NCBI GenBank assembly: GCA_965205025.1 | Contig: CBDBFU010000027.1 | Span: 32,001 to 96,000 of the forward strand | Origin: Candidatus Poribacteria bacterium | Lineage (GTDB): Bacteria > Poribacteria > WGA-4E > WGA-3G | Direction of reading: 5' to 3' | DNA: 64,000 nt | In this document: positions 8,323 to 35,614 of the stretch, one piece after another | How positions within the stretch are numbered: the first letter of the stretch is position 1 | How the letters are laid out: each line of letters opens with the position of its first letter | Notes under the pieces: model-generated | What the model saw: only the letters and a program-made list of their open reading frames with translations | What the model was told of the DNA's origin: nothing | Database searches by the model: none | Made by a program: the position numbers and the translations under genes

Positions 8323-8426
8323 GGCGGGAGGTTTAGCGTCTCTCCCGCAAGGACGTTCTTGAATAACACAAGTGCCAGTAATTTATACACGCGACTGGCG
8401 GCGACGAGAGATTATGTATGATCCTA
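8323..8426 (-). repeat. 3' trailer of B gene; inverted copy of 34909-35012, with two hairpins (terminator-like)
   Basis: About 100 bp identical by eye to the reverse complement of 34909-35012; stems GCCAGT/ACTGGC and GCGGGAG/CTCCCGC. Confidence 0.85.
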
Positions 8427-14378: not shown

Positions 14379-14753
14379 TATATGTCTCCTGAATATAAAA
14401 TATATAATGTCTTCTGATAATGGTTTCTGAAAAGTGAAAAGGTTTTACGTAATCTTGTGTTTCTTCAATAACGGTAGGGCAGTTTCCTATTTTCGCATGC
14501 CCGGTAGGTTCGGTTTCCCGGGGAATGCCTAATGGCATTCATACCGTTGATTCACCGAACCGGGTTTGTTCCAATTGCGTACATAAAGTTTTTCGCGAAG
14601 GATCCAGTGCGATTAGGAAATCGCACCTACCGGTCTGGGAAAACCACTAAATTGACGCCTATATGGCATTCATACCGTTGATTCACCGCACCTACCGTAA
14701 ATCATAAATATCGCGATCAGGAGGTTGCTCCTACAGAATGTATTCTTGTGTAT

Positions 14754-14954
14754 ATAAAGTAAGGACATTGCAAGCAATGTCCTTACTTTATTGAATAGCT
14801 TAGGTTAGCTAAGTATTCCCATTAGGAAACTGTTGTACCGGTTTCTCAACAGCCTCCTAACTGGGGAATAGTTTTAGTTAGATTTCCTACAGTAAGGATA
14901 CTGCAGCATCCTTACTGAGAGGAGAATTGGTTAAATTATCCCTGAAATTCAACC
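14754..14954 (-). terminator. Four-hairpin 3' trailer of cassette A1 ending in a long terminator-like stem
   Basis: Near-identical inverted copy of 29674-29873; perfect 18-bp stem ATAAAGTAAGGACATTGC/GCAATGTCCTTACTTTAT at 14754-14791. Confidence 0.75.
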
Positions 14955-17900
14955 TTATTGTGAAGCTTTTAGCTCACTCCACGTCGTTGTAAGTCTGTTC
15001 TTCGCTGAGATGAGGCCTTTCAACTTGGTTATAGCAAGTGCTTGGCGTTCACCGGCGAAGGATACATCTTCAATCTGGTAGTAGTACACAACACCTGGTT
15101 TGGCGGTCTGATCAACCCATTTATAGGTGTTACGTTCACCTGTTGTACCAGCACCTTCGATAAGCTCAGCGTTGACCTGTTTGTACTCACCGTTCCGAGT
15201 ATCACTACGTAGGATATTAAATCCAGCGTTGTCAAGTTCGGATTCGGTTGTCCAACGGACAGTCACTTTACCATCTTCAAGTGTTGGACGGAAGTGTGAT
15301 AATTCAACAGGTAGCACCATACCCGGACGGTTTCCAGGTGTACCGTAATCATCTTCAACACCAAACCAAGTAGACTTGATAGTGATTTTGAATTCCCGTT
15401 CAGTATTCACAGCAGGAATCCAACTATACTTCGCATCAATCTCACCTGGCGTTTTGACTGTCTTGTCACCGGTACCCATGATTGGCTGAACATTACTTTC
15501 TGCTGTGTTCACACCAGCGCGTGCAACGCCTGGTTCGCCGCCAAGACCATCAGCATCATCATAGATACGTATGATAGAAGTACGGTTACCGTCAGCAGCT
15601 ACGCCTGCGGGGAACTCCCATTCAGCATCATCACTGGTTCGGGCATCACCGTCAAGGTTACCAACCATGTCTGCTACATCGCCAGCATTGTCAACAAGTG
15701 CGATATTGAATGCTTTCGGATTGAAGAACATATAACGTGTGTTTGCACCGAATTTATTCGCGCCACCATAATCTCTGAAGACATTGAAGACACGATTGTC
15801 ATTAAACACATCGCCACCAGTTGCAGAGTCACTATTTGCCTGTCTGGCATTACCCGCAACAATCAGAACTGTCTGTTGTGGGAGAATAGTTTTCACTCTA
15901 CCTTTATCTTTGAAACTAAGAGACAGTAGACTATCCATCGGATTGCCATCAGCATCAAGCATTTCAAAGACCAGTTTCCAGCCTTCGCCGAGATCAACAG
16001 CGTTTGTCGGTGAACTGTTGTAAAGCTCAATCCACTGTGGTAATATCGGATTTTCGGGGTTAGGACCGGTGGAATACATGATCTCACTGATGGTCACTGA
16101 AGCATCCGCAGCTTTGGTCTTAACGATACCAGAATTTACAACACTGTTACCGTCGTATCCCGGTGTGCCGTTGTGATAACTGACACGTGCTCTGGCTGTG
16201 CGCCTATAACCGATACCGGTATAAATTGCATCACGGAAAGCGTAGTGTCCAACACCTTCATCTTTGTGTGTGACACCTGTACCTGCACGGTTACCGGGTG
16301 TTCCACCATCAGCATCATTTTTCGCATAAGTAGAAACGTGTTGACGGAAACGAACTCTGTTTACCTCAAGACGATTATGACGTCTGTGATTCAGGTCACC
16401 ATGCCCATAATGTGGTCTCATGTCACCGTTGAAGTTCCACAATGGCCAGAGGGTCGTACTATTGAGACCTGATGGCGTTGATGCTGGATAGTTGGATTTA
16501 TCCAATCCTGTATGGGACCCGGCAATATCCATGATTTTGTCAATATCATGTTCACCAACATCAGCAACACCCTCACCGTCGTTACCACCTGTATTAGACC
16601 TATTACCGTTATATTTGTCATGTCTACGCAGGATCAGTATATAATCGCCACCATTAGGCAGACCACCATTTTCAAAAGTTATCACTTTTTGTCTCGGCGG
16701 TTTACGATTACTGTTATCTCCTTCAACAAGACCCAAACCATCTGCCTGATCACTTGCATGTGCAATATCAACGTTCAGACCGACAGCGATCGGGTGATCA
16801 TCGTCATATCGCGGATCCGTAGCAAGTAATAGAAGAACTTCTCCAGGTTCAATCTGTGCATTATCGTCATTCGGAAATTGAACCAATGGGAGGTCAGTTC
16901 CAACAGCAGTTACCATTGAAATCATCCAGTTCCGTAAATTGACCTTGCTACTACCGACGTTCTTGAGTTCAATCCATTCATACTCGGCATTAGCATTGTC
17001 ACGGTTAGCAACTTCATTGATAATAACAGTAGGTTCACTTCTGAAGATGGTCTTACCGTTACCATCCTTCTGTCCCGTATCTACCCTTGCAACCATTGTT
17101 GTACGTTCACGTGTGCTCGCTCTTGAAAGATTAATGCTATGTGGACGACCCCGGTGAACCTATATAATGATAAAGCGCATTATCGGTATCGCTTCTTGTT
17201 GTTGATGCAAGATACTCTCTATCAGATTCATGCCAATGACCCGCTGATGTACCATTTACATAACCGCGGTTTTTATCGCCAACATAACTTCTGTGCATAG
17301 AGATAAAGTTCACACCTGTATAACTATTACCGTTCTGCCCCTTACTATTATTGTCCGTGCTGTCATCTTCCTCCCGAACTGCCCACGCTGCAGAACCAGG
17401 ACTACCGTTATAGGCATTACCAATTCTATCTTTTACACCTTCGTTATGGGTAACAGCAGAATCTAAACCAGTTCTGGCATACAGGAAGATTTCAACAGCT
17501 TTTCCTGTATCATTACTAAGTTCAATCCACTGTTCAGCAGCTTCTTCGTCGTTAGTGGCACCACGCATGGATAGATCAGATGCCCACATCACTTCAGAAA
17601 TACGGACAGTTTCTCTTTGGTTCTCGCCACCATACGGTACCTGATTAGCGAGGTTTGATTGCCCCGGTGCTTCTTTTAAGTTCAGTGTGCCACCAAACCC
17701 TTGATTAGTACCGGAAGGTTTAAGCCTAAAGAGCACTTCTAAATCAGGCATATTACACCAAACAACTGTTTCAATATTTGGAGCAGGCGTCGGGGGTTGT
17801 TGGTTAACTGGGAGTCTCGGTTGATCTGAAAGATAATCATAAGTCATTCCTGCTGTTTTGGTGACAACCATAATTGTGTTGACGGGAATATGGAATATGG

Positions 17901-19866
17901 GACCAACATTAAATGGCATCTTTTTCTCTGCGTTCCCATTCCCCGCGTCATCGTGCACTACATTCGCCTTTACCACGACTTCCACGGTCGTCTCACCGAT
18001 GTTTGGGATAAGCGTGAAGGTTGCAGTTTTTGGATTCGCGCTCGCATTCCATTTGAAACTACCTGCCTTTATGCTGCCTCTATTCACATCAACTTCATTT
18101 CTAGCAATTGCTGCGTTGCTTGCCAGAGCTACATTGTCCATCGGTGTAATAGTGATCATTGCACCATCAAGTGAATCAACATCACCAGCTTTATTAGGCG
18201 CTACAGGCTCTGGACAAAGGTCGGTATATTGAACAAGATTGCGTGCCGCAATTGTAACAGTCGGAGCATCACCTTCTGGGTTATATACACCTTCCGCACC
18301 GGGTGTGCGATTACCTGCCAGGTCTTGTGCAGCATTAGCTCTCACTTCAACCCTGACTGCTGTATTCGCTGCTCTGGGACGGACATATAACGTGTAACTC
18401 TCTGCAGAATCTCCGTGTGCGGTGGTATCCTTCGTAAGATCGCCATCGGCTAACGGATACGCATCACCAGTATCAATATCAATATCATTGATCGTAAGTG
18501 CTGGAATTTCTGCGGTAAGGTCAGTACGAGTAGAATAAAGTTTTTCGTTAGAAAGAATTCTGAACATCAACAAACCTTTTTCGTTACGATCAGTCGTAGC
18601 TGGATCATCTACAGCGGTGGGTGCTCCAGGCGGTACAACTGTCAATACCGGTGAATCGTTATCTATAACATGAACCGTCACCGTTTCAGATTTTGCGTCC
18701 GATGTCATACCGTTGTTGTTTGTGATCGCTCCTGCTTCAACTGTTAATTTCACATCTCCAGCAGCAGCAGGCGTAACTGTTATTGTCGTTACCATACCAG
18801 CTGTAGCGAAGTTTTTAATGGTTCCGCCTTCAACTGAAACCTCATTGAAGGACAGAACTAAATCCGCACCGGTACCAGCAACAGTATCACTAACAGTTAC
18901 AGTAAACGTGACATCTGTAGTTGCCAAGTCAGAGGCTGCGATCGGACCCGTTGACGGAGCAGGATCGTTCTTTGCAATGGCTACTGTTGGTTTTGTGGTT
19001 ACAGGTGCATCTGGTAAAAAAGGAACGAGTGTAAAGATATCCGGCGTCCCCGTGCACTATTATCAGCATTTCGACTTGATGGAAGGTTGTTCCAACGTGC
19101 AAGTGGATCTACTGCTCGAAAATCGGGCAACGCTTGTGCAGAACCACCTTCTACGACTACTTCAAACAGAATGTTTTTCCCGTCAATAGCGGGTTCCGTA
19201 GAAGCATCGTCTCCAGCTGCCTCTGCAGCCACTGGCAGTGCCCCGTTAGCAAGCGTAAATGTTACATCAAACATCCTTTTAGAATTATTTGCTGTAGCAG
19301 TATCATTGTCCGTATCAACAGGAGCAAATGCAACACTACTTATAGCAGTCGTGAGACTTCCAAAACCACCGCCAGTAGCAGCACCGTAATAAAGCAGCTC
19401 ATTGGTTCCTTCAACACCGATTTTGACGGTGAGTAGATCGCCCAAGGGTTCCGCCATCAGATGTAAATAAACCATCAACAGTAGTGGGTGCCTCGTAAAG
19501 CACGTCTTCACTAAATGTAATTCTAAAGGTAGCAGCAGTTACTGCTGGATAAACAGCAGAATCAGGATCCATTAGGCGTGTGGTTGCGACCCTAGCCAGT
19601 ACATACGTTGTACCACCAAATGTTATGGAGGTAGCTGGTTCAGCATCAGCACCGGTAGCTCCAACAGTAACCGTCGGATGGTCACCTAAGACGTGATCTG
19701 CTGTGGGTGCATTTACCAAGTTACCGTCTGCATCAGTATCAGTGTGTGAGTTATCATCTGCATTTTCATGTGCCATCACAGATGTTCCAACAAACACACC
19801 CCCAAGTGCAAGCAGTAAAATTAAAGTTGTTATACAATATGTCAATTTATTTGACAATAACATCAT
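14955..19866 (-). CDS. Cassette A1: giant secreted Ig-like plus lamin-tail-domain protein; frameshifted
   Basis: Pieces 19866-19411, 19511-18999, 18927-17137 and 17096-14955 are collinear with 24868-29673; LTD-like motifs ISEVMWA..QWIEL, IINEVANR..YEWIELKN, ISEIMY..PQWIELYN; LPVELSHF..WTTESE..LTTTWSELK C-terminus. Confidence 0.85.
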
Positions 19867-19947
19867 ATACTCCTTATAAAGTTGTTGAATTCAAGTTAAA
19901 GATTCAGGGAAAATTAAATCTTCTTAACCTAATCTTCTAAACTAAAT
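19823..19947 (-). repeat. 125-bp inverted repeat (5' UTR, RBS and first 14 codons) shared with 24787-24911
   Basis: Reverse complement matches ATTTAGTTTAGAAGATTAGG...TATAACAACTTT at 24787-24911. Confidence 0.92.
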
Positions 19948-19950
19948 TAA

Positions 19951-20031
19951 ACAGACAGGGATAACCTGTTTGTCTGTCTTTTGATTGATTTCGCTATTTT
20001 GAATTAGACAAAAGGGGATTTTTGTCTAATT
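19951..20031 (-). other. Putative recombination site 1 (expression position): 25-mer dyad 19951-19975 plus perfect 12-6-12 dyad 20002-20031
   Basis: AATTAGACAAAA-ATCCCC-TTTTGTCTAATT and AGACAAACAGGTTATCCCTGTCTGT on the minus strand; homologous elements precede all four A genes. Confidence 0.7.
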
Positions 20032-20177
20032 GCGTCAATTCACGGTAGTCAATCATCTTCACATTGGATTGTCGAAGCTAAACTTTTCTTAGGTCTGTTG
20101 CTTCGTTCCAATCCACAATATCCTTAAACTTATGTTGCAGTCGGTGTTTAGAACCGTTATCCGCAAACTTGTCAGTA

Positions 20178-20206
20178 ATTATAGGTTATTAATAATATAA
20201 TGTCAA
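20178..20206 (-). promoter_or_regulatory. Consensus sigma70 promoter P1 directed at site 1/cassette A1
   Basis: TTGACA (20206-20201), 17 bp spacer, TATAAT (20183-20178). Confidence 0.88.
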
Positions 20207-20434
20207 ATGTTTTTTCTATTGTTTATGTATTAAACATTAGAACCGGGGCTTCAATCTGTTTAAAATTCTGTTTTTCAATGTTGTGTGTATGCTTTTCTGT
20301 ACCCGTTCTATACACCGTTTCGGCTGTACCGTTTTTGAAGTTCCCCTATGAACAGATTTTCATTTTAACATTATTAAAAAATTTAATCAACAATTTTTTT
20401 GCGTTTTATTACTTTATACGCACAATTGTGGATT

Positions 20435-20463
20435 ATTATACACTATTATACGTTTTATGTCAA
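20435..20463 (-). promoter_or_regulatory. Second consensus sigma70 promoter P2, same direction as P1
   Basis: TTGACA (20463-20458), 17 bp spacer, TATAAT (20440-20435). Confidence 0.8.
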
Positions 20464-20689
20464 GCAATAATTACAAAAAAACATACACCTCTGTTTAAAT
20501 AGAGTGTTTTACATTTATGACGGTTTGTTAGGTTTGTATCCTAACATTCCCGTATTATACATTATATATATACGTTATAAGTCAAATAATGGATACAAAA
20601 AAATTGAAAAAAGTTTCTGAACGATGGATTACGCGGATTTCACGGAGAAGAGGAAAGCCCGGGGCTTATTGTTTTGCGTTTTTACGTTT

Positions 20690-20985
20690 TCTACACACCT
20701 TTCGCCCCTCTGGGGCTTACGGTATTGGTGATAACGACTTCTATAAACATTCCGTCCCTACGGGACTCAAGAACATGGATCAAGCATTTTTGCTATAGAC
20801 ATTTCGTTCCTACGGAACTCAGGAATATGGAGCAAATATCTTTGCTATAAACATTTCGTAGACAGGTCTATTGAAGACACCCATGTGTTTTTAGAACGGA
20901 TATAGTCCCGTAGGGACGGAATGTCTATAGAAAACGTGTGTATCCCCATAAGTGAGTCCCGTAGGGACGGAATGTCTATATCAAC
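20690..20985. repeat. REP/REPIN cluster (GTCCCGTAGGGACGGAATGTCTATAG family) flanking tnpA
   Basis: Multiple copies in both orientations. Confidence 0.8.
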
Positions 20986-21019
20986 ATATAGGTGGAGTTT
21001 TCAAGAGACGTATGATCTT

Positions 21020-21493
21020 CTAAGAATCGCTCTCTAACACTGGATGAAAAATATATCTTTCATCATAATCAACATTAAATCGTTTTAACAACTCAATATA
21101 TTCTTCTCTAAACGACTTCTGCTTATGGTGCTTTTCTTGATTAAGGATATAATTTGATACACTCTCTATTTGTGAATGTGCGTAAGTAAAGGCAGAATAA
21201 CCTTCTTGCCATTTGAATTGACCGGCAACCCATTGCTTCTTGTTTATGAATCGTGATGAATTTGCTTTAATATCTTTTACCAATTCCGATAGTGCCATTG
21301 AAGGATCTATACCAACAAAAATGTGTATATGGTCTGGCATAGAATTGATTTGGATCACTTTATGTTTATTATTGGTGATTATACCTGTAATGAATTTGTG
21401 AAGTTCTTCTTTATGTTCCTTCGGAATTAGGTTTTGACGATGTTCAACTGCAAAAACAATATGTATATATAATTGTGTATATGTGTTTGCCAT
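21020..21493 (-). mobile_element. tnpA: IS200/IS605-family Y1 (HUH) transposase TnpA, REP-associated (RAYT-like), copy 1
   Basis: YTQLYIHIVFAV, MPDHIHIF (HUH), WQEGYSAF, YILNQEKHH; flanked by REP hairpins. Confidence 0.9.
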
Positions 21494-21554
21494 AGTATTA
21501 CTCCTTACGGTTTGTATTTTATCATTTTGTCCTTACCCAATCAACGAGAAATGT

Positions 21555-21810
21555 GCTATAGACATTCCGTCCCTACGGGACTCAAGAATATGGAGCAAAT
21601 ATCTTTGCTATAGACATTCCGTTCCTACGGAACTCAGGAATATGGAGCAAACATCTTTTCTATAAACATTTCGTAGATAGGTTTATTGAATACTCCCATG
21701 TGTTTTTAGAATGGATACAGTCCCGTAGGGACGGAATGTCTATATCAACATATAGGTGGAGTTTTCAAGACACGTATGATCTTCTATAAACATTTCGTAG
21801 ATAGGTCTAT
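21555..21810. repeat. REP cluster on the other side of tnpA copy 1
   Basis: CTATAGACATTCCGTCCCTACGGGACTC units and an inverted copy. Confidence 0.8.
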
Positions 21811-21958
21811 TCACCCAGGTGTCTTTACATCCGCTGAAGTATATGTTTCTACAGGTTGAGTATTAGGAAAGTTGACTCTAACTATTCAATTTCAATGGTA
21901 TGAAATAGTATAGCCAAAGAAGGTATTTACAGATTAATAGCAGAAAAAGATAATAGTA

Positions 21959-22210
21959 TTAGGAGAGATTGACAAGATGATGCCCACGTTCAAGTTTAAC
22001 CTGATGTAAATCAAATTCAACAAGTCGAATTACACCCGGTTCATCGTCATATACTACACCGATAGATGCAATTGTTTCTTCGGTTCCTAAAGGATCTTTA
22101 AATTCAACTATATCACGGACTTTTCCAGGATTCCCGTCAACAACAATTCTATCACCAACATTTAAGTCTTTTACATTCTGGAAAGGAATATACTTTATAG
22201 TATCTGTCAT
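21959..22210 (-). CDS. Small hypothetical protein (83 aa; beta-rich, possibly SH3/KOW-like)
   Basis: Clean ORF with AAGGA RBS; LNVGDRIVVDGNPGKV pattern. Confidence 0.6.
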   Translation of the reverse strand: MTDTIKYIPFQNVKDLNVGDRIVVDGNPGKVRDIVEFKDPLGTEETIASIGVVYDDEPGVIRLVEFDLHQVKLERGHHLVNLS

Positions 22211-22514
22211 TTTAGATTCCTTATAATATTATATTTGAATATATGAAATAGGATTGTCAGGATGTAAATTACAAATTGAATCTGTATTGCCAAATTACTT
22301 TACTGAACTAACAAGTAGTTTTATTTTGAAATACAATAGACGGTAAAGAAATAATCAACACATTCTGATTATAAACTATAAAGTTCAAAATGTCAAATTA
22401 CAATTCATTCTTATACCATTTCCAATTGATAGATTTACATTATGATTTAAGTAAAACAGGGACAATCATATACAGATCTATGAGTCCTGGGCTAATTTCT
22501 TTTTTATTTGCTTT

Positions 22515-23095
22515 TCTACGCACCTTTCGCCCCTCTGGGCTTATTGTTTTGCGTTTTTACGTTTTCTACACACCTTTCGCCCCTCTGGGGCTTATACATT
22601 ATAATAGTCACGTTTTCTACACACCTTTCGCCCCTCAAATCAACGGTATGAATGCGCGTATGGCATTCCCCGGGGCTTAGGGTATTGGTGATAACGACTT
22701 CTATAAACATTCCGTCCCTACGGGACTCAAGAATGTGTAGCACGCATTTTTGCTATAGACATTTCGTCCCGATGGGACTCAAGAATGTGTAGCACGCATT
22801 TTTGCTATAAACATTCCGTCCCTACGGGACTCAAGAATGTGTAGCACGCATTTTTGCTATAGACATTCCGTCCCGATGGGACTCAAGAATGTGTAGCACG
22901 CATTTTTGCTATAGACATTTCGTTCCTGCGGAACTCAGGAATATGGAACAAATATCTTTGCTATAAACATTTCGTAGATAGGTTTATTGAAGACACCCAT
23001 GTGTTTTTAGAATGGATATAGTCCCGTAGGGACGGAATGTCTATAGAAAACGTGTGTATTCCATAATTGAGTCCCGTAGGGACGGAATGTTTATT
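22515..23095. repeat. REP arrays: TTTTCTACACACCTTTCGCCCC units and a 52-bp tandem unit (~5 copies, 22701-22980)
   Basis: CTATARACATTYCGTCCCKAYGGGACTCAAGAATGTGTAGCACGCATTTTTG with period 52. Confidence 0.85.
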
Positions 23096-23142
23096 GAAAT
23101 CCGCGAATCAAAAAACTGATAGCCAACAGCTGATAGCCAAAC

Positions 23143-23191
23143 AAAAACAACAAGGAAACACAGACATCAAATCGGCTTCCTTGTTGTTTTT
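23143..23191 (-). terminator. Terminator-like hairpin downstream of the recombinase
   Basis: AAAACAACAAGGAA...TTCCTTGTTGTTTT stem. Confidence 0.6.
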
Positions 23192-23298
23192 GCTTGTTAA
23201 GTATATATATATTAATGTATTGTGTAGAGTGAATACGTTTCCGAACACCTACCAATCACCAATACAGATTATTCGTATAAAATTAACAGGTTTCAGTT

Positions 23299-24045
23299 TC
23301 ACGCTACTGCAGATGTATTTATATTTTGGATTCCTTTCTTATTGACCATCTCCTCAGGATCATACCCACGCCGAACCAGTTCTCCAAATAAAATATCATC
23401 CGCCACCTCTCCAACAGATGTTGAAGTATAGGTTTTCGGTTTTTCTGCCATTACAGAGATGGCTTCGCTTGCTTGCCTCAGTTTTGTATAGTTTACGCCA
23501 AGATATCTTTGTGTAGTCTTAACGTCGTTATGCCCGAGCATCTCACGTACCGTATATATATCGTTAGTTTGCTCATAAAGACGTTGTGCGTAACTTTTAC
23601 GCAAAGAATGTGTAGCAAGCTTCCCGTTGAGTCCGGCTTTTTTAAAGGCAACCTTTAATATAAGGTGTGCGGATTTCCGTGTCATCGGTTGTTTTCCCTG
23701 TCCGTTCCTTGAAGGGAAAACCGGTCGTGACATATTAAGTCGCTTCCCATACTGTTCTTGATGCCACTTGATAATTTCTTGAACCGCTATAGCTCCATCA
23801 GAATTCAGTGGCACTGCGCGTGATGTTTCTTTCCCCTTAACAATAGATTTGTCAAAAAGCAGATCCGTTACAGGCGCATTGTTCTGATAGACATCTGTGA
23901 GTCGAAGCCCCAACAGTTCAGAAATCCGTCCACCGGTAGAAACACCGAGTATAAACAGACATTTATTGCGTATGGCGAAAGTGCCTTCAAAGCATGCCAT
24001 AACCCGGCGTATTTCATCGTTCATGAGAGGTCTTGTACCTTTCAT
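23299..24045 (-). CDS. Tyrosine recombinase/invertase, catalytic-domain-only (FimB/FimE-like architecture)
   Basis: RNKCLFILGVSTGGRISELLGL, HSLRKS and LGHNDVKTTQRY supply the R-HxxR-H-Y residues; no N-terminal SAM domain; ATG at 24045 after GGAGG. Confidence 0.93.
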   Translation of the reverse strand: MKGTRPLMNDEIRRVMACFEGTFAIRNKCLFILGVSTGGRISELLGLRLTDVYQNNAPVTDLLFDKSIVKGKETSRAVPLNSDGAIAVQEIIKWHQEQYGKRLNMSRPVFPSRNGQGKQPMTRKSAHLILKVAFKKAGLNGKLATHSLRKSYAQRLYEQTNDIYTVREMLGHNDVKTTQRYLGVNYTKLRQASEAISVMAEKPKTYTSTSVGEVADDILFGELVRRGYDPEEMVNKKGIQNINTSAVA

Positions 24046-24700
24046 GGACACCTCCTAAAATAGATTTTATGTATAAAATTTATGTATAAGTATGTGTAAA
24101 TATGTATAAAGCAGTATATGCCGTATATTATGGTTATACGCTTTAATATATAAGCGTGTTGCAAGATAATTTGGCAGTAGTAGACATATTAAACACTGTT
24201 CTAATCACGCTTTAACCCGTGTGTCCCAACGCTCATACCTCCTCTGTATGGGGCGCTTCGATTCCCATTAGCGTCAATTTAGGAAAAAAATTTTGTATCC
24301 CAGGCCGGTAGGTGCGGTTTCCCAACCGCACCGAATTTGTGCCAAATCTTTGATTGAAAGCCTTCGTGTATAATCCACTTCGGTGAATCAACGGTATGAA
24401 TGCCATAAGGCATTCCCCGGGAAACCGAAGCTACCATTATTAAAGGTGAACTAAATTGACGCCTATAATGAAGGACCTCCAATTCCCGACGCTTCCATCC
24501 TTCCACCTCCTCTGTAGGAGGGAATTCCGATTCCCGATTCTTCCGATATATGATTTTCAAATATATAGTTAATCATATTAAGACAATAAACTTTTTATTA
24601 AGTAATATATTATTTATATATGACTTAATACGAATACATTTATTAACAGATACAATGTTTATAGGTAATTATCAATTACTTTTTATGAAATCATTATTTG

Positions 24701-24780
24701 AATGTGACAAAAATCCCCTTTTGTCAGGTTTAGACATGGTGGTCATAGATCAAAAAGACAAACAGGTTATCCCTGTCTGT
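24701..24780 (+). other. Putative recombination site 2
   Basis: AATGTGACAAAA-ATCCCC-TTTTGTCAGGTT (24701-24730) and invariant 25-mer (24756-24780); inverted relative to site 1. Confidence 0.7.
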
Positions 24781-24867
24781 TTAAATATTTAGTTTAGAAG
24801 ATTAGGTTAAGAAGATTTAATTTTCCCTGAATCTTTAACTTGAATTCAACAACTTTATAAGGAGTAT

Positions 24868-27800
24868 ATGATGTTATTGTCAAATAAATTGACATATTGT
24901 ATAACAACTTTTATTTTCCTGGTGGCGTTTGTAGCGGTGCCGGTGATGGCACACACGCCTGGTGACGGTCATGACGCTGCGCATGATGGTGATAATCCTG
25001 CAACTGCTGATGTAGTAGAAACAGATTTTGCAGAAGAAGTCAATCACACTCACACAGCCGCGCCAATGGTATCTGCTATTACAGCAGTTGACACAAAGGG
25101 TCTCCCCGCAGTGGGTGGTACATTAGTCAGCAATGTAGACGGAAGAGATATAGTGCTTGTGGATGATCTAACAGCAGCTGATGATGCACGCTTAGTTATT
25201 GCTCTTACTGATCATGATAATGATGCCACAACTGGCACTCCCCCAACTCCTGAGCAGCTCGCGGCGGGTGCTTTTCAATTGAAGATCACGTTTAATGAGG
25301 ATGTGTATCCCGTAGCTCAGGCTGGTACTACTGCTGGTGTAGCACCTGCCATTGCTGTTGATACTGGTGCTTTTACTGGTGTGACATTCCTCGCAGCAAC
25401 TAAAAATGGAGTGGATGTTTCTACCTCATTCACCCTTGGTACACTTACACGCGTACAAACTGCAGGGGCTGATACTACTGAAGCTACAGATGATGAATTT
25501 TCTTTAAGAGAATTTCTGGTACCGGTTACGGTGGGTGCAGGTTTAACGGAGCTTCAGCTCCCTGTATCGCTTTGGGTAACCGTGGGTGCTAATCAAGTAT
25601 ATACCTTATCGAAAATTGTCAATGGTGAAACAGTACAAGGTCGTGGAAACACAGAATATAGCACTCCTGGATCAGATCCGTTCTCCGTGGATGGTTATGT
25701 GGCACCAACAATAACAACACCAGATGATACTGCAGGTCCGGATATTGTTACATTCACTTCTTCCGCAGCTGATTCTGATGGTAATGTAACTTTTACGCTT
25801 ACCTTTAGTGAGGCTCTTGGAACAAGTGGTCTTATTCCAGCGGACCTTACGATTACTGGTGGAACGTTAGTAACAGACGGTATTACACCGGCAGGTTCAG
25901 CAACGGTTTATATGATAAAGGTTACCCCAGACGATGATCCGACAGAGGCTGAAGTTACAGTAAGGCTTAATGATGGGTCTGTATCAGATAAAGTCGATGG
26001 AGCTCGTTATGTGGAACCTATGGACGAAGCCGATGTGAAGATAGGTAGATATGATACCGTGAACCCAACGGTGAATGCAGTTGCTACAGGTGTTGTTGGA
26101 ACAGGTACAGGAACTGATGGCAACGGTATAGCAGTTGGCATGGTGAAACTTAGCGTCACTTTCAGTGAAGAACTTGGTAGTGACATGGCTGGTTTCGAAA
26201 ATGATGATATTGATAGAACGAATAGTAATGTGTTGTTAACTAACACCGATCCTATGTTAGCTACAATGCCTGAAGGCAACAAAACTGTTTGGGAATTGAC
26301 GGTTACACCTGTGCCAGCAAATGCCGCACAAGTTGTGATTGTTATTAAAGCAGGTTCAGTCATGGACATGGCTACTAATCCGTTATTGCAGGATACGATT
26401 GTAACGTGGACACGTCCTGGGGCTGACACAGAGAGTGATAATCCGGTCGTTACGATTGCACTCGATGCTGGTATGACTTACATTGACTCTGTGAGTGGTG
26501 GTACAGTTACCGTTACAGCCTCTGATAGTGGTAGTGGACTTGCGACCGGTGCGGAAATTATTGAAACTGAAGTCACTATTGAAAATGGAAGCATCATGGC
26601 AGGTAGTTTCACGAAAGGTGCAACTGCAACGTTCACTCTTATTCCAAATGTCGGTGCCATATCGGTAAAAGTGACGGTCGCCGCAGGTGCTGTGGCTGAC
26701 GCTGATGGTAATACCAATGTCCTTCAAACGGACATGACTAAGCCGAACGCGAACCCGATGACATTCAAAGTCGGTCCGACATTCACGATTCCCGCAAATA
26801 CAATATTGGTTGTCACCAAAACAGAAGGGTTGACACATCAATATCTTTCAGATCAACCGAGATTGCCGGTTACCTCAAATCCACCTGTGCCTGCTCCAGA
26901 TATTCAAACGGCTGTTTGGGATAATATGCCGGATTTAGAAGTGCTCTTTAGTCTATCTGGTGGCGGTAACGGCGGTACAATTAACTTAACGGAAGCAATG
27001 GGTCAGGACGAACTTTCACAGACACGTGATGGAGACAAACAACAAAGGAACTCTGTCCGTATATCTGAAGTGATGTGGGCATCTGATCTATCCATGCGTG
27101 GTGCACAAGACGACGCAGAAGCCGCTGAACAGTGGATTGAAATTAGTAATGATACAGGCGAAGAGGTTGAAATCTTCTTGTTCGCCAGAACAGGACGAGA
27201 TTCTGCTATCAACGTTGATGATGTAGAAGATAGAGTCGGTAACGCATATAATGGTAGTCCTGGTTCTGCACCGTGGGCAGTTAAGGGTCAGAACGGGAAT
27301 AGTTATACTGGTGTAGACTTTATCTCAATGCACAGAAGTTACGTGACCGGTGATAATCGCGGTTATGTGAATGGAACATCAAGTGGTCATTGGCATAATT
27401 CGGATAGAGAGTATCTCACACTGGCGACAAGAAACCCGAATGATGGTGCGCTTTATAATTATATCGGTTCACCGGGTCGTCCACATACTTTCAATCTAAC
27501 ACTACCGAATACCCGTGAACGTACTACAATGGTTGCGCGAGTAAAAGAGAAAAATGATGACGGCTCGGACAAAAAAGATGGAAACGGTAAGCAGATATAC
27601 AAAAGTGTGCCTACTGTTATCATCAATGAAGTTGCGAACCGTGACAATGCTAATGCCGAGTATGAATGGATTGAACTCAAGAACGTTAGCAGTAGCAATG
27701 TTAATTTACGGAACTGGATGATTTCAATGGTAACAGAAGTCGGAACAGACCGTCCATTAGTTCAGTTTCCGAATAACAATAATGCCCAGATTGGACCTGG

Positions 27801-29673
27801 AGAAGTTCTCCTGCTACTTGCTACGGATCCGAGACATGACGATGATCACCCGATCGCTGTCGGTCTGAACGTTGATATTCCTCATGCAAGTGATCAAGTA
27901 GATGGTCTGGGTCTCGTTGAAGGAGATAACAGTAACCGTAAACCACCAAGACAAAAAGTGGTAACTTTCGAAAATGGTGGTCTGCCTGATAATGGCAATT
28001 ATATATTGATTCTCCGTAGACATGACAACCATGAAGGTCATAGATCTGGTGTTGATGGCGGTAAAGGTGTTGCTGAAACCGGTGAAGCAGACATTGATAA
28101 AATCATGGATATTGCCGGGCACCATGAAGGATTGAGTAAATCCAACTATCCAGCGTCAACCCCAGAAGGTCTCAATAGTACAACCCTCTGGCCCTTGTGG
28201 AACTTCAACGGTGATATGCGTCCGCATCGTGGACATGGCGACTGGAATCACAGACGTCATAATCGTATTGAGGCAAACAAGGTTCGTTATCGTCAACACG
28301 TTTCTACTTATGCGAAAAACGATGGTGATGGTGGAACACCCGGTAACCGTGCAGGTACAGGTACAAATCACAAAGATGAAAATGTTGGAAACTACGCTTT
28401 CCGTGATGCAGATTATACCGGCCTCGGTTATAAACGTACTGCCAGAATAGCTGGCTACAATCACGGTACACCCGGATACGATGGTAATAGTGTTGGGAAT
28501 ACCGGTATTGTCAAAGCTACGGCTGCAGATGCTATGGTAACCATCAGTGAGGTCATGTATTCCACTGGTCCTGATGCTGATAATCCGATATTACCGCAGT
28601 GGATTGAGCTTTACAATAGTTCACCTACCGTCGCGGTTAATCTGAGAGGTTGGAAACTCCGCTTTGAAATGCTTGATGCTGATGGCAATCCGATGGATAG
28701 CCTCATGTACCTCGAATTCAATAAGAGTCGGGTGAAAACTATCCTTCCACAACAGACAGTTCTGATTGTTGCGGGGAATGCCAGACAAGCAAATAGTGAT
28801 TCTGCGACAGGTGGCGATGTGTTTAATGACAATCGTGTCTTCAATGTCTTCAGAGATTATGGTGGCGCGAATAAGTTCGGCGCGAACACACGTTATATGT
28901 TCTTCGATCAGAAAGTATTTTACATCGGAGTCATTGACAAAGATGGCAAGGTCGTAGACGAAGTCGGTAACCTTGACGGTGATTCCAGAACAAGTGATAC
29001 GAATAACTGGGAATTCCCATCTGGTATCGCTGCTGACGATAACCGTACATCTATCATCCGTGTCTATGATGATGCTGATGGTCTTGGCGGTGAATCTGGT
29101 AAGGCACGCACTGGAAAGAACACAGCAGAAAGTAATGTCATGCCTATTTTCGGAAGCGGTGACAAGAAAATGACAGATGATGACGGCATTGCTGATAAGT
29201 GGAGTTGGATACCCGCTGTGAATACCGAACGGGAATTCAAAATCACTATCAAGTCTACTTGGTACGGTGACGAAGACGATTACGGTACACCTGGAAACCG
29301 TCCGGGTATGGTGCTACCTGTTGAGTTATCACACTTCCGTCCCACACTTGAAGATGGCGAAGTTACGATCCGTTGGACAACCGAATCCGAACTTGACAAC
29401 GCCGGATTTAATATCCTTCGTAGTGAAACTCGGGACGGTGAGTATACACAGATCAACGCTGAGCTTATCGAAGGTGCTGGTACCACAGGTGAACGTAACA
29501 CCTATAAATGGGTTGATCAGACTGCCAAACCAGGTGTTGTGTACTACTACCAAATTGAAGATGTATCTTTTGCTGGTGAACGCCAAGCACTTGCTATAAC
29601 CAAGTTGAAAGGCTTAATCTCAGCAGAGAACAAACTTACAACGACGTGGAGTGAGCTAAAAGCTTCACAATAA
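24868..29673 (+). CDS. Cassette A2: giant secreted Ig-like plus lamin-tail-domain protein (1601 aa)
   Basis: Signal peptide (VMA-H), acidic Ig-like repeats, three LTD-like modules, LPVELSHF...KLTTTWSELK C-terminus; AAGGAG RBS. Confidence 0.92.
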   Translation: MMLLSNKLTYCITTFIFLVAFVAVPVMAHTPGDGHDAAHDGDNPATADVVETDFAEEVNHTHTAAPMVSAITAVDTKGLPAVGGTLVSNVDGRDIVLVDDLTAADDARLVIALTDHDNDATTGTPPTPEQLAAGAFQLKITFNEDVYPVAQAGTTAGVAPAIAVDTGAFTGVTFLAATKNGVDVSTSFTLGTLTRVQTAGADTTEATDDEFSLREFLVPVTVGAGLTELQLPVSLWVTVGANQVYTLSKIVNGETVQGRGNTEYSTPGSDPFSVDGYVAPTITTPDDTAGPDIVTFTSSAADSDGNVTFTLTFSEALGTSGLIPADLTITGGTLVTDGITPAGSATVYMIKVTPDDDPTEAEVTVRLNDGSVSDKVDGARYVEPMDEADVKIGRYDTVNPTVNAVATGVVGTGTGTDGNGIAVGMVKLSVTFSEELGSDMAGFENDDIDRTNSNVLLTNTDPMLATMPEGNKTVWELTVTPVPANAAQVVIVIKAGSVMDMATNPLLQDTIVTWTRPGADTESDNPVVTIALDAGMTYIDSVSGGTVTVTASDSGSGLATGAEIIETEVTIENGSIMAGSFTKGATATFTLIPNVGAISVKVTVAAGAVADADGNTNVLQTDMTKPNANPMTFKVGPTFTIPANTILVVTKTEGLTHQYLSDQPRLPVTSNPPVPAPDIQTAVWDNMPDLEVLFSLSGGGNGGTINLTEAMGQDELSQTRDGDKQQRNSVRISEVMWASDLSMRGAQDDAEAAEQWIEISNDTGEEVEIFLFARTGRDSAINVDDVEDRVGNAYNGSPGSAPWAVKGQNGNSYTGVDFISMHRSYVTGDNRGYVNGTSSGHWHNSDREYLTLATRNPNDGALYNYIGSPGRPHTFNLTLPNTRERTTMVARVKEKNDDGSDKKDGNGKQIYKSVPTVIINEVANRDNANAEYEWIELKNVSSSNVNLRNWMISMVTEVGTDRPLVQFPNNNNAQIGPGEVLLLLATDPRHDDDHPIAVGLNVDIPHASDQVDGLGLVEGDNSNRKPPRQKVVTFENGGLPDNGNYILILRRHDNHEGHRSGVDGGKGVAETGEADIDKIMDIAGHHEGLSKSNYPASTPEGLNSTTLWPLWNFNGDMRPHRGHGDWNHRRHNRIEANKVRYRQHVSTYAKNDGDGGTPGNRAGTGTNHKDENVGNYAFRDADYTGLGYKRTARIAGYNHGTPGYDGNSVGNTGIVKATAADAMVTISEVMYSTGPDADNPILPQWIELYNSSPTVAVNLRGWKLRFEMLDADGNPMDSLMYLEFNKSRVKTILPQQTVLIVAGNARQANSDSATGGDVFNDNRVFNVFRDYGGANKFGANTRYMFFDQKVFYIGVIDKDGKVVDEVGNLDGDSRTSDTNNWEFPSGIAADDNRTSIIRVYDDADGLGGESGKARTGKNTAESNVMPIFGSGDKKMTDDDGIADKWSWIPAVNTEREFKITIKSTWYGDEDDYGTPGNRPGMVLPVELSHFRPTLEDGEVTIRWTTESELDNAGFNILRSETRDGEYTQINAELIEGAGTTGERNTYKWVDQTAKPGVVYYYQIEDVSFAGERQALAITKLKGLISAENKLTTTWSELKASQ

Positions 29674-29873
29674 GGTTGAATTTCAGGGATAATTTAACCA
29701 ATTCTCCTCACAGTAAGGATGCTGCAGTATCCTTACTGTGGGAAATCTAACTAAAACTATTCCCGTTTAGGAGACTGTTGAAAATCCGGTGCAACAGTTT
29801 CCTACTGGGAATACTTAGCTAACCTAAGCTATTCAATAAAGTAAGGACATTGCTTGCAATGTCCTTACTTTAT
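29674..29873 (+). terminator. Four-hairpin 3' trailer of A2 with terminal stem 29836-29873
   Basis: Stems GGTTGAATT/AATTTAACC, CACAGTAAGGAT/ATCCTTACTGTG, TAGGAGACTGTTG/CAACAGTTTCCTA and ATAAAGTAAGGACATTGC/GCAATGTCCTTACTTTAT. Confidence 0.75.
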
Positions 29874-30354
29874 ATACACACAGTTTCCTACGATATGATT
29901 TATGGTAGGTTCGGTGAATCAACGGTATGAACACCTTTAGGCGTTCCCCGGGAAACCGCATCATATAGGCGTCAATTTAGTGGTTTTCCCAGGCCGGTAG
30001 GTGCGATTTCCTAATCGCACTGGATCCTTCGCGAAAAAATTTATGAACGCAATTGGAACAAACCCGGTTCGGTGAATCAACGGTATGAACACCTTTAGGC
30101 GTTCCCCGGGAAACCGAACCTACCGACCTGAAATTTATAGCGTACTTCTCCTTAAATTGACGCTAATGAATCAACGGTATGAATGCCTTATGGCATTCCC
30201 TGTGGTTAGGAAAACGCATCTACCGGGCATGAAAAAATAGGAAACGGCACTACCTTTGTTGAAGAAACACAAGATTACATAAAACCTTTTTCAAATTTCA
30301 GAAGACATTATCGAAGACATCATATTTTTCTTATATTTATTTAGGAGACATACA

Positions 30355-33300
30355 ATGAATAACACATTTTTCACGCGAAAGCTTGGACTCGGTATCCTCA
30401 TAGCGCTTGTATTCGCGTTTGGTGTGCAGAGCGTAGCAGACGCACAGTTGCGAGTTAGCAGCAGCAGAGGTGATTTACAAGTCAAACCTTTGGTTGCGAA
30501 CCAAACATTTGAGTTCTCGTTTTATATAAGCGGTATTCCAGGAAGCAGACCTGATACTTCTCCTGGGACTGCCGATACTGAGCGGGAAGAGATAACGATA
30601 ACTCCAACTGGCGGGGCTTTCACTGAAGTAAGAATGGGTAGCACACGCTACACATCAGCAACCAAAACTCTTACAGGGGCTTTCACGCTACAAGAATGGC
30701 ATGCCGATAATACCAATGGGATTGCTACTACCGCGGATGATACTGATCTTGGTGCTACTGAAGGTGACCTTGCTACCGGCACTGTAACTGTGACGGTTGA
30801 ACCTACAGCTGTCGGACCTATTACAGTTACAGTTGCTGCAGCAGGCGATTCAACCGGCGATTTTGAAACACTAACATTCACGGTTTATGCTGTACAAATT
30901 CCTACGGACGTTCAAGGTCTCAGGTTTGCAGCAAGCACTCCGACCGTAAATCCAACAACTAAAACAACCTATCCACCATTCGATCCGAATGTTCCCTTAT
31001 ATGATGAGGAAGTTATTGTCACGGTATTTGATGCTTCTGACGCAGCTGGAGGCAATCGGGCGTATGCACTTGTTGATTTTGAAGTTTTTGAGGGACCCGG
31101 ATTTGTTTATCAGGATCTGAACGATGACTCAGAACCTGACCCTGGTGAAAGCAGAAATTCAAAAACTACAAGAACATTAACTCGTCTGGGTACAGATAAC
31201 GATATGGCAAGGGTAAGACTGCGGACGAATGGCGGCACTAACAAAGTTCGCGCAACAATTACTAACACACAACCACCCCAAACCTACGAGATTACTTATC
31301 TCTATCAAGGAGACGGGACAACGACGACACCACCGCCACAACCAGGAGGTCCACAACTTACTGTTAACGCACCTGCCACCGGCACTGTCGGGCAACCGAT
31401 TACTGTTACAGCGACTGTCTCTGATAATCGCGCCCGTCGAGTGGTCGCTTTCTCAAGTAATAGAGGTGGCACTTTTTCACAAACTCCTATACTAACGGAG
31501 AGTAACGGTGTTGCAACAATACAGTTCACACCGAGTACTCCCGGGACAGTAACCATCACCGCACGCTCGACCGGCTATACAAACGGTACCGATACGGTTC
31601 AGGTCTCGTCAGCCCTCCCTCGCCTCACAGTGCTTACACCGACACCACCCATCAGAGGAAATACGGGGCAAAGACTAAACATAGTTATTGGCACAGGAGC
31701 TCCTGCGGGTCTAACAGTCACACTGACAGGCACCAATTTTCAACCTGCCATTGCCCAAGGTGTCACACTTTCCAACGGTTCCGTTACGATCCCCGTTACG
31801 CTACCGAATAATCCTGGGGGTCATCTACTCACTGCCAGTGCTCCTGGATATCAAAATACGAGTATCTCAGTGATTGTTGGAGGGGCAACGACTGGTGGCC
31901 CAGTGCAGTTAACGATTCCCAGCGGACAAACACAAACCGTGTCTATCGGGAGTAATGCTCCGTTGCGGGTACGTGTAACAAGTACAGTGTCGAATGTAAG
32001 GCAATCGGGTGTTACTGTCACGTTCCGCAATGCCAGTGGAACTACCATTCATACAGCTACTACCGTTAACGGCGAAGCCACCTATAACTTTCCTGTAGTT
32101 ATACTGGGTCCACACACGGTATCGGCAACTCTACTCGCGGCGAATAATGCTAATTTTGATGTAAGTGGCGTAACCCCTGTAACCTTTACGATCACAGGAA
32201 CAAGACAACAGCCAACGCAATCCACGCGACTCACAATTCTTCCTCCACGGAACAGTCTCAATCAAATATTGACCAGTGGGGGTCCAGGGGCATCCTATCC
32301 GTTGACAATTCTGTATAATAATACGCCGGCTCTCAACCAATTAATTACACTTACCGTTACGAACATCGCACAACCAACACAAATACCTGTCCAACCCATT
32401 ACGTTAATAACGGATGCAAATGGCAGAGCCACCACGCCGGATACATTCAGACTACCGACCACCCCCGGAACGTATACTATTAGAGCCACTATCGGCACCG
32501 AATTCCGAGAAATTACGGTTACAGTACTGGCGATTAGACTCGTGAAAGATGCAAGCGATAGCGTCTCTGGTGATAACCAGGAAGGGGACCGCGGCAAAGT
32601 GCTTGATGATCCGTTTCTCCTCAAAGTCATTCGGGACGTCGCTAATGTTGAAACCGCTGTACAAGGCGTACCGGTAACGTTTACGGTAGTTGATGGCGAT
32701 GGGGAACTTTCAACTTCAGGTAGTGCTACAAGCGGTTCCAATTCACTAACCGTCAACAGTGATACGAACGGTGAAGTGCGTGCATACCTTGTCTTGGGTG
32801 AAGACGATGAAGATAATAGGGTTCGCGCAAGCGCTGGGGATACTACTGTGACAAGTGTGTTCTTTGACGCTACAGGATCGCTCGTTCCAGATGCCATTGA
32901 AATCGTATCTGGTAATAACCAACGGGTAACACCGAACCGGTATACCGATCCGATGGTCGTCCGGGTTACAGATGAGGACGGCGACGATCTGCAAGGCGCA
33001 ACAGTGACCTTCAGTTTGAGAGGTCCCAGTGGCACCTTAACACCACGTACCGCAACGACAGATCGCAATGGTGAAGCAGAGGCAGAATTATTGCCACGTA
33101 GTGCCGGCACATACTTCGTTGAGGCAAGGGTTACGGGCGTCACATCTGTTCGCTTTACAATAACAGTCGGTGATTTAGCAGATTCTATAGAAATCTATTC
33201 CGGGAATAACCAGAGTGGTGACCCAGGAACAGAACTTGACGATCCACTTGTTGTTGAAGTGCTTGACGAAGATGACGATGTTGTTTCAGGTGTTACCGTA

Positions 33301-34911: not shown

Positions 34912-35410
34912 GATCATACATAATCTCTCGTCGCCGCCAGTCGCGTGTATAAATTACTGGCACTTGTGTTATTCAAGAACGTCCTTGCGGGAGAGACGCT
35001 AAACCTCCCGCCTTTTCTTTTCTGTATGCGGGAACTCCCATTCCCGACCCTTCCATCCTTACCCTCTCTTTGTACCACAAACTTTATGAGGATTAAGTTT
35101 TAAATTCAGCAATTCCCATTTTCCCAAACTTGGTAGGTTCGGTTTCCCGGGGAATGCCTAATGGCATTCATACCGTTGATTCACCGAACCGAATTTCTAA
35201 CACATTACCGAATTATTATTTTAATCTTCATTTAGTTTGTGATCTTCCATCTTTTCTGTATGAGGGAATTCCGATTCCCGACTCTTCCATCCTTCACTTC
35301 CAATATGTGACTTCAAAAATATATAAATCATAATATGACATATATATTTTTATTATCAGATACAATTTTTTAGGTATTTCTCAATTACATTTCAAAAAAT
35401 AAAAAATATA

Positions 35411-35490
35411 AATGTGACCCAAATCCCCTTTTGTCATGTTCAAGCCTTGTAGTCAATTAAAAGATAGACAAACAGGTTATCCCTGTCTGT
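35411..35490 (+). other. Putative recombination site 3
   Basis: AATGTGACCCAA-ATCCCC-TTTTGTCATGTT (35411-35440) and invariant 25-mer (35466-35490). Confidence 0.68.
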
Positions 35491-35614
35491 AAACAAAGCA
35501 AATATCAATATTGATATTTGAGTATTTTTAGAAGATTTAGATATACAGGATTTAAATTCCCTGAATCTTAACATGACTTGAATAACTTTTTTTTAAATAA
35601 AAGGAGTTTATGAA

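Follow-up and report, generated by a model that had tools for sequence, protein, structure and literature searches.

In a 64,000-nucleotide (nt) stretch of a Candidatus Poribacteria genome (GCA_965205025.1, contig CBDBFU010000027.1), hereafter called the window, a gene for a small tyrosine recombinase lies between two inverted copies of a 12-bp core. The same segment carries consensus promoters that read out of one of its ends, across the core, towards a gene for a giant surface protein with a lamin tail domain (LTD), and a paralogous LTD gene leads away from the other end. We consider it probable, at roughly 0.6, that the 248-amino-acid (aa) enzyme inverts this 4.7-kb segment at the core and so works as the invertase of a promoter switch. 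This reading is carried by the common anatomy of three loci, by the restriction of the core to genomes that possess a close relative of the enzyme, and by an exchange of flanking sequences, at one of the three loci, whose breakpoint falls in the core.

The window corresponds to C27:32001-96000 of genome G000 (5.66 Mb, 33 contigs, 95% complete), and positions are given within the window. Its two counterparts are locus L003 in genome G048 and locus L004, a 3.4-kb contig, in genome G108. The composite site described below was sought in 112 genomes of the taxonomic family, and the recombinase family in 151 genomes of the phylum. The elements on which the argument turns are these:

about 20019-24713: proposed invertible segment, 4.7 kb
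23299-24045, minus strand: coding sequence of the tyrosine recombinase, 248 aa, stop codon included; catalytic domain and C-terminal tail of about 60 aa
20007-20026, minus strand: site 1, a 20-bp imperfect palindrome GACAAAAATCCCCTTTTGTC, whose outer 12 bp (20007-20018) are the core TCCCCTTTTGTC
24706-24725, plus strand: site 2, the same 20-bp element inverted relative to site 1; core at 24714-24725
19803-19975, minus strand: left inverted arm, with leader palindrome (19951-19975), conserved leader, ribosome-binding site (RBS) and first 21 codons of LTD1
24756-24931, plus strand: right inverted arm, with leader palindrome (24756-24780), leader, RBS and first 21 codons of LTD2
19976-20616, minus strand: promoter-bearing inner end of the segment, conserved and non-coding; P2 and P3 read outward across site 1
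20178-20206, minus strand: candidate promoter P3, perfect consensus, about 310 nt upstream of the LTD1 start codon
20435-20463, minus strand: candidate promoter P2, perfect consensus
14955-19866, minus strand: LTD1, lamin-tail-domain surface-protein gene, joined to the promoters in the assembly
24868-29673, plus strand: LTD2, intact, 1601 aa, Pfam LTD E 1.3e-24, without a consensus promoter of its own

Promoters, core and the footprint of an inversion

The segment contains three perfect matches (12/12) to TTGACA-N17-TATAAT, all on the minus strand and all reading out of one end. Such matches number 46 in the 5.66 Mb of the genome, so that about 0.04 would be expected in 4.8 kb. Towards LTD2 and its paralogues LTD3 and LTD4, the best matches reach 9/12 only, and the perfect ones face LTD1 alone. 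P2 and P3 are kept perfect in L003 and L004, where they also read outward, and the flank that bears them is 82% identical over 677 nt to that of L003, at a synonymous divergence (dS) of 0.53, and 76% identical to that of L004. Given a dS of 0.53 to 0.75 for the recombinase gene, this flank is constrained. Relatives without the recombinase have fixed LTD promoters homologous to this flank, and P2 and P3 thus appear to be ancestral promoters of the LTD surface-protein gene family.

The recombinase gene is enclosed by inverted arms that match over 145 nt at 96% identity and over 29 nt at 100%, and each arm contains a leader palindrome of 25 nt. The 12-mer TCCCCTTTTGTC occurs five times in the 5.66-Mb genome, exclusively at LTD 5' sites (four in the window, one on contig C7). 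Its place is in the interval from promoter to leader palindrome: the last promoter, P3, stands about 150 nt upstream of it, and the palindrome 35 to 45 nt downstream. The composite of core and palindrome is found in 3 of the 112 family genomes, namely G000 (five copies), G048 (two) and G108 (two), which are exactly those with a recombinase at least 85% identical to that of the window (87% for L003, 85% for L004). In G048 and G108, the sole composite copies form an inverted pair around the recombinase gene, and the same anatomy is found in the window, L003 and L004: a recombinase amid inverted sites, with two perfect outward promoters at its 3' end. A previous interpretation of this DNA (the sequence-only reading) had located the gene between sites 1 and 2 and had proposed that it is linked to the promoters. 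The first point holds in all three site-bearing genomes (3/112), and the second agrees with consensus promoters reading out of one end of the same segment. The two remaining copies of the core in the window are preceded by altered inner arms:

35416-35435, plus strand: site 3, core conserved at 35424-35435, inner arm degenerate (GACCCAAA)
49688-49707, plus strand: site 4, core conserved at 49696-49707, inner arm degenerate (TACAATAA)

Which of the two conserved elements is the crossover site? The leader palindrome is present in 18 of 40 genus genomes, mostly as a single copy, including complete genomes without this recombinase family. Among ten palindrome places that were fetched, seven lie at the start of an LTD-type gene, with the palindrome upstream of the gene, and these seven 5' regions have a perfect or near-perfect TTGACA-N17/18-TATAAT, homologous to P3, 150 to 290 nt upstream of the palindrome. 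We therefore rejected the palindrome as crossover site: it stands in single copy upstream of LTD genes in genomes that do not have the recombinase family, and appears to be an ancestral element of the transcribed leader. The core, in contrast, is absent from all seven LTD leaders of relatives without a recombinase of at least 85% identity, which indicates that it was added specifically in genomes of this recombinase clade. From this distribution, the 12-bp core TCCCCTTTTGTC, rather than the leader palindrome, is likely to be the crossover site. Palindromes with the 7-6-7 layout of site 1 were counted at control level in other genomes.

Evidence for an exchange at the core comes from aligning eight sites of the three genomes. 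There are two classes of inner flank, those of the promoter end ('dn'), 69 to 85% alike between genomes, and those of the recombinase 5' end ('up'), 58 to 78% alike. The spacers between core and palindrome also form two classes, one starting with TAATTCA and the other with ATGTTCA or AGGTTTA. The window and L003 combine the promoter flank with the TAATTC spacer and the remaining flank with the ATGTTC type; L004 shows the reverse linkage. L003 and L004 have both inner flanks in common, including the inner half-site, and their spacers are exchanged directly after ...TTTTGTC. Thus the 'up' spacer of L004 is 70 and 78% identical to the 'dn' spacers of the other two loci, compared with 57 and 70% for its own 'dn' spacer; conversely, the 'dn' spacer of L004 is 71 and 68% identical to the 'up' spacers, compared with 57 and 64% for its 'up' spacer. 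Both the homology breakpoints and the linkage swap of L004 fall in the core. A swap of flank and spacer at the core, with the inner half-site staying with its flank, is the result expected of a reciprocal exchange inside the core, and not of a crossover in the long outer repeat. We read the L004 swap as the footprint of one historical site-specific inversion with its breakpoints inside the core.

A different agent is conceivable. The segment might be inverted by homologous recombination across the 175- to 220-nt 5' cassettes, or by another enzyme, and the 248-aa recombinase might have a general job such as Xer-like dimer resolution. The arms are indeed long and 96 to 100% identical; moreover, they are 89 to 99% alike within a genome and 48 to 69% alike between genomes, which suggests ongoing exchange between them. 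However, a crossover in the outer arms would keep each spacer with its inner flank, the opposite of what is seen in L004, and the core co-occurs strictly with the recombinase clade of at least 85% identity. We therefore find this explanation improbable; its second half, the general job, is taken up with the recombinase family below.

Under the site-specific reading, the segment would behave as a one-directional unit: a recombinase gene, then passengers (repeat arrays and a transposase gene, described below), then two conserved consensus promoters of the sigma-70 type. In the present state, these promoters would fire outward across the core into a leader of about 300 nt and then into LTD1. The change specific to this lineage would be the insertion of the core into the transcribed leader, upstream of the leader palindrome, the RBS and the signal peptide, together with an inverted second copy (core, leader and paralogous LTD gene) on the other side of the segment. 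Strand exchange between sites 1 and 2, at their inverted cores, would then flip the segment, so that the promoters would leave LTD1 and drive LTD2. Leader, RBS and signal peptide would stay with each LTD gene, and the products would differ in a variable N-terminal region of about 2 kb; the recombinase would remain linked to the promoters through each inversion.

The recombinase and its family

Pfam PF00589 matches aa 7 to 186 of the recombinase (profile positions 3 to 170 of 172, E 1.5e-28) with 100.1 bits, far above the gathering cut-off of 27.1, which places the protein in the tyrosine recombinase superfamily. Residues R40, K70, H146, R149, H172 and Y181 are invariant in an alignment of 30 family sequences, and the catalytic motifs align with the catalytic residues of XerD (E 2e-11), in agreement with the earlier description of an intact R..HxxR..H..Y enzyme. 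GGAGGTG stands just upstream of the ATG, and an alternative GTG two codons upstream would give 250 aa. Since all 54 extracted family members share the start MKG(T/V)RPL, the start is genuine, the protein is not truncated and the lack of an N-terminal domain is real; that the enzyme begins almost directly with its catalytic domain had been rightly recognised. The C-terminal tail also exists, at residues 187 to 248, and is about 60 aa long rather than the proposed 50 or so. It contains a conserved motif around D216, L219, E222, L223, R226, G227 and Y228, which follows the tail helix pattern conserved in the family, D-x-x-L-x-x-E-L-x-x-R-G-Y. The ratio of non-synonymous to synonymous divergence (dN/dS) is 0.07 to 0.14 against the L003 and L004 orthologs, at the dS of 0.53 to 0.75 already mentioned. 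By this measure the gene is under purifying selection, and it looks intact and constrained.

Comparison with family models separates the recombinase from the best known subfamilies. The FimB/E-type models NF007371 and NF007370 score 53.7 and 46.5 bits, compared with cut-offs of 222 and 221, and align with the recombinase end to end (aa 5 to 204 against positions 5 to 194 of 198); the FimB/FimE-like minimal architecture, without an N-terminal core-binding or arm domain, is thereby borne out. The XerC and XerD models TIGR02224 and TIGR02225 give 92 to 96 bits, compared with cut-offs of 330 to 335, and match from model position 106 or so to 285 only (E 2e-27 for TIGR02225); the two-domain architecture of XerC/XerD is not found. 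The integron integrase model TIGR02249 gives 61 bits, compared with 265, over aa 119 to 184 only, and the XerA model of NCBIfam also stays below its threshold. An AlphaFold model of the protein has a mean pLDDT of 69, with the tail below 50, and Foldseek pairs it with chains of integrase, XerA, XerD, XerH and Cre at a probability of 1.00. As a prediction, the model confirms the recombinase fold, and it is uninformative on the tail.

Two features lie upstream of the gene:

24111-24175, approximate, minus strand: conserved block, also found upstream of the L003 and L004 orthologs
24068-24109, plus strand: four TATGTATAA-like repeats in the 5' region of the recombinase gene, three exact and one with 1 mismatch

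The conserved block is probably the promoter region of the recombinase gene, judging by its retention in the three loci, and the rest of the upstream region is unconserved in L003 and L004. The TATGTATAA-like copies start at 24068, 24081, 24091 and 24101. The sequence-only reading had pointed to these repeated motifs, which do exist; TATGTATAA occurs 32 times in the window, compared with 25.4 +/- 5.2 expected, which is not above chance, and the cluster is not kept upstream of the two closest orthologs, those of L003 and L004.

Several observations weigh against the proposed switch. At the locus, the footprint represents one event, read from two spacers of about 35 nt on one short contig; the promoters are consensus matches only; and sites 2, 3 and 4 are directly oriented, so that recombination among them would delete rather than invert. 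In Logan assemblies of two sequencing runs (X5 and X6, with locus shares of 0.80 and 0.67), contigs span both cores in the assembled configuration only (19918-20691 and 24420-24816 in X5, 19993-20713 in X6), and among the 15 contig joints listed, of 34 in all, none links the two cores. In the wider family, 41 of 46 Poribacteria loci, with recombinases of 60 to 65% identity, are linked to holA and have no LTD gene, flanking repeat, core or palindrome. Members from the genus of G000, at 49 to 75% identity, stand in other contexts, one of them convergent with an LTD gene. In the complete chromosomes G003, G004 and G042, this family provides the sole PF00589 match above the cut-off, which fits a general role. 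Finally, the same genomes encode another minimal recombinase (201 aa, contig C20), which is a candidate for an alternative catalyst.

The contig data are to be read with the properties of the assemblies: the outer repeat interrupts the unitigs, rare variants are lost from contigs, and the depth of one run is about 5x. They neither show nor exclude a minority orientation. In metagenome scans, the composite site and the promoter-flank junction gave 0 matches each.

If the locus did not switch at all, it would consist of static divergent LTD paralogues with a common leader and signal peptide; the core would then be part of the leader or an operator, and the recombinase gene would be a relic or unrelated to the locus. 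Palindrome, downstream leader block and signal peptide are conserved family-wide without the recombinase, no alternative orientation is seen in the contigs, and LTD1, the gene that faces the promoters, reads as four open reading frames (ORFs) in the assembly, with three frame changes at 19441, about 19030 and about 17150. On the other hand, one base at 19441 is missing from contigs of two public runs, which contradicts at least this frame change and makes it probably an assembly error or a strain difference, and in L003 both LTD genes that flank the recombinase are intact (1414 and 1413 aa). The absence of the core from the seven leaders mentioned above, the presence of consensus promoters on one side only, the purifying selection on the recombinase and the linkage swap of L004 are further points against a static arrangement, which we judge to be unlikely, to about the same degree as inversion by homologous recombination or another enzyme.

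The recombinase family comprises 2672 matches, with members of about 255 aa, and occurs in 74 of the 151 phylum genomes: in 55 of the 57 genomes sampled from the sister genus, in 14 of the 37 from the own genus (counted at E <= 1e-30), and almost nowhere else. It is patchy, and multi-copy in several genomes, with up to six matches, some of which contain stop codons. The loci with holA (L007-L047, all of the sister genus, at positions of about 4400 to 11900 of each) have a block of genes on the same strand: an SGL/NHL-like gene, a CARDB gene, holA, the 255-aa recombinase and two small ORFs. Around these orthologues, the search for local inverted repeats yielded chance-like pairs only, at three loci. 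In G000, holA lies on contig C22 without an adjacent recombinase. In a tree from a quick IQ-TREE search, the three LTD-linked genes form one clade (support 100), nested in an own-genus clade (98) whose sister is the holA-linked clade. Orthologs thus do not consistently accompany divergent LTD genes, which tells in part against the sequence-only reading, and the proposal of a dedicated invertase survives in a narrower form: it is defensible only for the subclade of at least 85% identity, the wider family being found elsewhere without the sites.

Could the family instead do a general job, such as resolving chromosome dimers? Besides the three chromosomes in which it is the sole PF00589 gene, the picture from six complete or near-complete chromosomes (G003, G004, G042, G045, G029 and G036) is that each has one or two PF00589 genes, of which only one lies above the cut-off, in most cases a short one without an N-terminal domain, and that canonical XerC/XerD are not seen among them. 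In G000, consensus patterns for a dif-like motif gave only poor matches, with 4 mismatches, and no canonical motif was found. A phylum-wide housekeeping or Xer role is nevertheless weakened by the counts given above: at E <= 1e-30, the family is missing from 23 of the 37 own-genus genomes, single-contig ones included, and a housekeeping role could fall to the minimal recombinase of contig C20. The latter (G000:C20:260595-261200; positions 1477-2082, minus strand, of locus L002) consists of the catalytic domain only, is single-copy in 28 of 40 genus genomes at 76 to 98% identity, and does not track the core. No inverted repeats of note flank it, and downstream of its gene two small secreted proteins are encoded, whose sequences end in ...TTTWG.(L/I)K.

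A broader scenario seems to us possible, on the doubtful side. The lineage-specific minimal family that is a fixed neighbour of holA in the sister genus may have been captured, in one lineage, into the leader of a giant LTD adhesin as a self-contained promoter shuttle, giving the first programmed surface-protein variation in Poribacteria; the family would then perhaps serve both as a general recombinase, standing in for Xer, and as an invertase for antigenic variation.

Paralogues, passengers and repeats around the segment

The remaining features of the window that concern the segment and its gene family are:

35615-39927, plus strand: LTD3, paralogue behind site 3, two ORFs
49886-54241, plus strand: LTD4, paralogue behind site 4, 1451 aa
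22368-22396, minus strand: third perfect candidate promoter, window-specific, upstream of an orphan 83-aa ORF
21020-21493, minus strand: IS200-like, Y1 transposase gene associated with repetitive extragenic palindromes (REPs); PF01797 E 1.4e-28, NCBIfam IS200 and REP_Tyr_transpos

LTD1, LTD2 and a fifth paralogue (G000:C7:197746-202534, 1551 aa, 67% identical to LTD2) share a 5' cassette of about 220 nt at 86 to 99% identity. It is followed by some 2 kb of coding sequence without detectable nucleotide similarity and then by a conserved 3' part. The same cassette stands at the two further window paralogues (sites at about 35.4 and 49.7 kb). Including core and spacer, the cassettes of C7 and LTD1 agree at 99% over 219 nt, but the flank upstream of the C7 cassette is unrelated and has no perfect promoter. 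Sites 3 and 4 and the C7 site, whose inner arms are degenerate or different, may be weaker partners or relics, in the case of sites 3 and 4 relics of a duplication.

The C7 site, with its unrelated inner flank, recalls a further possibility: a segment of 3.2 to 4.8 kb could be a small mobile cassette, made of a recombinase and outward promoters, that integrates into LTD leaders at the core, the inverted cores being its ends. The patchy and sometimes multi-copy distribution of the family would suit this, as would the assignment of the recombinase to the integrases by PHROGs. However, the promoter flank has its homologues in the native, fixed LTD promoters and leaders of relatives and is thus not foreign, the repeat runs outward into the paralogous genes without stopping at the termini of an element, and there is one recombinase copy per genome in all three genomes. 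We regard a mobile cassette as very unlikely, well behind the other alternatives. Apart from the integrase and the transposase themselves, none of seven segment ORFs matched a phage, integrative and conjugative element (ICE) or plasmid family in PHROGs. The former statement that no mobile genes accompany the recombinase is accordingly right for phage, ICE and plasmid genes, and has to be amended for the Y1 transposase gene and the REP-like arrays.

This transposase gene is a passenger within the segment, amid REP-like arrays: in L004 it lies inside the segment in the opposite orientation, and in L003 outside it. The REP-like palindromic units, of about 52 nt with the core GTCCCGTAGGGAC, are dense at 20640-20990, 21550-21790, 22480-23100 and 24230-24540. 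Further arrays with the GTCCCGTAGGGAC core lie at 40290-40560 and 54600-54925, and near-identical copies of the transposase gene (96% over 746 nt) at about 40.5 and 54.9 kb. In sponge metagenomes, the unitig depth of the arrays reaches thousands. The orphan ORF below the third promoter (21959-22210, minus strand) has no homologue in any fetched locus nor elsewhere in the genome, and an Rfam scan of 19000-25500 gave one sub-threshold chance match.

On a larger scale, the segment is centred in an inverted segmental duplication of about 12 kb (8317-19975 against 24756-35018, with 79 to 96% identity between arms). In each arm, a second giant gene follows an LTD gene; the right-hand copy (30355-34911, 1518 aa) has a T9SS type A sorting domain above the cut-off, and the left-arm copies read as several ORFs. 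LTD3 and LTD4 are carried by a tandem duplication (35400-40650 against 49670-54920, spacing 14.3 kb); their 3' 3 kb are 99.9% identical, and their codons from about 130 to 550 differ completely. At least ten other large G000 proteins finish with a stretch 55 to 60% identical to the last 150 aa or so of the LTD proteins (29170-29673 in LTD2). These C-termini end in KLTTTWSELK-like motifs and match none of the Pfam and NCBIfam models; such a recurrent terminus is possibly a lineage-specific sorting or anchoring domain.

Comparison with known switches

Switches of this type are known, and the Poribacteria example appears to be undescribed: a search of the literature in full text found nothing on phase variation or LTD proteins in Poribacteria, and the main text of an inverton survey (PMC11602134) mentions neither Poribacteria nor sponges. 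If the proposed switch is real, a heritable and reversible choice between giant LTD surface proteins would be a concrete mechanism of surface variation in the sponge symbiosis. Poribacteria are abundant, uncultured symbionts of sponges, which are phagocytic filter feeders. The locus would also illustrate how such a switch can arise: a 12-bp core divides the strong promoter and leader that are fixed in sister genomes, and an inverted paralogue and a recombinase complete the arrangement.

With XerC/XerD, the recombinase shares its catalytic domain, for which these proteins are the best matches in sequence and structure, and it differs from them by the lack of an N-terminal domain, by its score (about 96 bits, compared with about 330) and by the patchy presence of its gene in the genus. 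The likeness to FimB/FimE and the fimS element of E. coli is one of design: a minimal tyrosine recombinase, short inverted repeats around a promoter element, and control of a surface structure. The family cut-offs are not reached, however, so that the enzyme is not a FimB/E orthologue. The fimS element is about 0.3 kb long, while the one proposed here is 4.7 kb; fimS is an ON/OFF switch, while the present locus would toggle between two genes, with the enzyme inside the element and with an additional conserved C-terminal tail.

A closer layout is that of the sapA locus of Campylobacter fetus, where an invertible element of several kilobases with one outward promoter lies between opposed surface-layer homologues with conserved 5' regions. 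Inversion at sap is reported to rely on homologous recombination between these long conserved 5' regions. The Poribacteria locus, by contrast, has a recombinase and a 12-bp core, into which the one breakpoint that can be detected falls.

Among proven systems, the Vpma/Xer1 switch of Mycoplasma agalactiae is the closest analogue in the arrangement of its parts; related multigene surface-antigen switches are those of M. bovis (Vsp) and M. pulmonis (Vsa/HvsR). According to the Vpma report (PMC2268961), the genes have a conserved 5' untranslated region (UTR) and signal peptide, a single promoter and sites in the 5' UTR, and the disruption of an adjacent tyrosine recombinase gene locks the phase. 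Both systems comprise a family of surface genes whose 5' UTR and signal peptide are conserved while the mature parts diverge, with sites in the 5' UTR and a recombinase encoded at the locus. In Vpma, one promoter is moved among genes by inversion; here, the perfect promoters face LTD1 only. They also differ in phylum and in product, giant LTD proteins here and lipoproteins there. The present enzyme lacks an N-terminal domain and is encoded inside the inverting segment rather than beside the locus, and there is an array of two or three consensus promoters with only two full sites. Whereas the Vpma/Xer1 inversion is experimentally proven, the Poribacteria switch is proposed from sequence alone.

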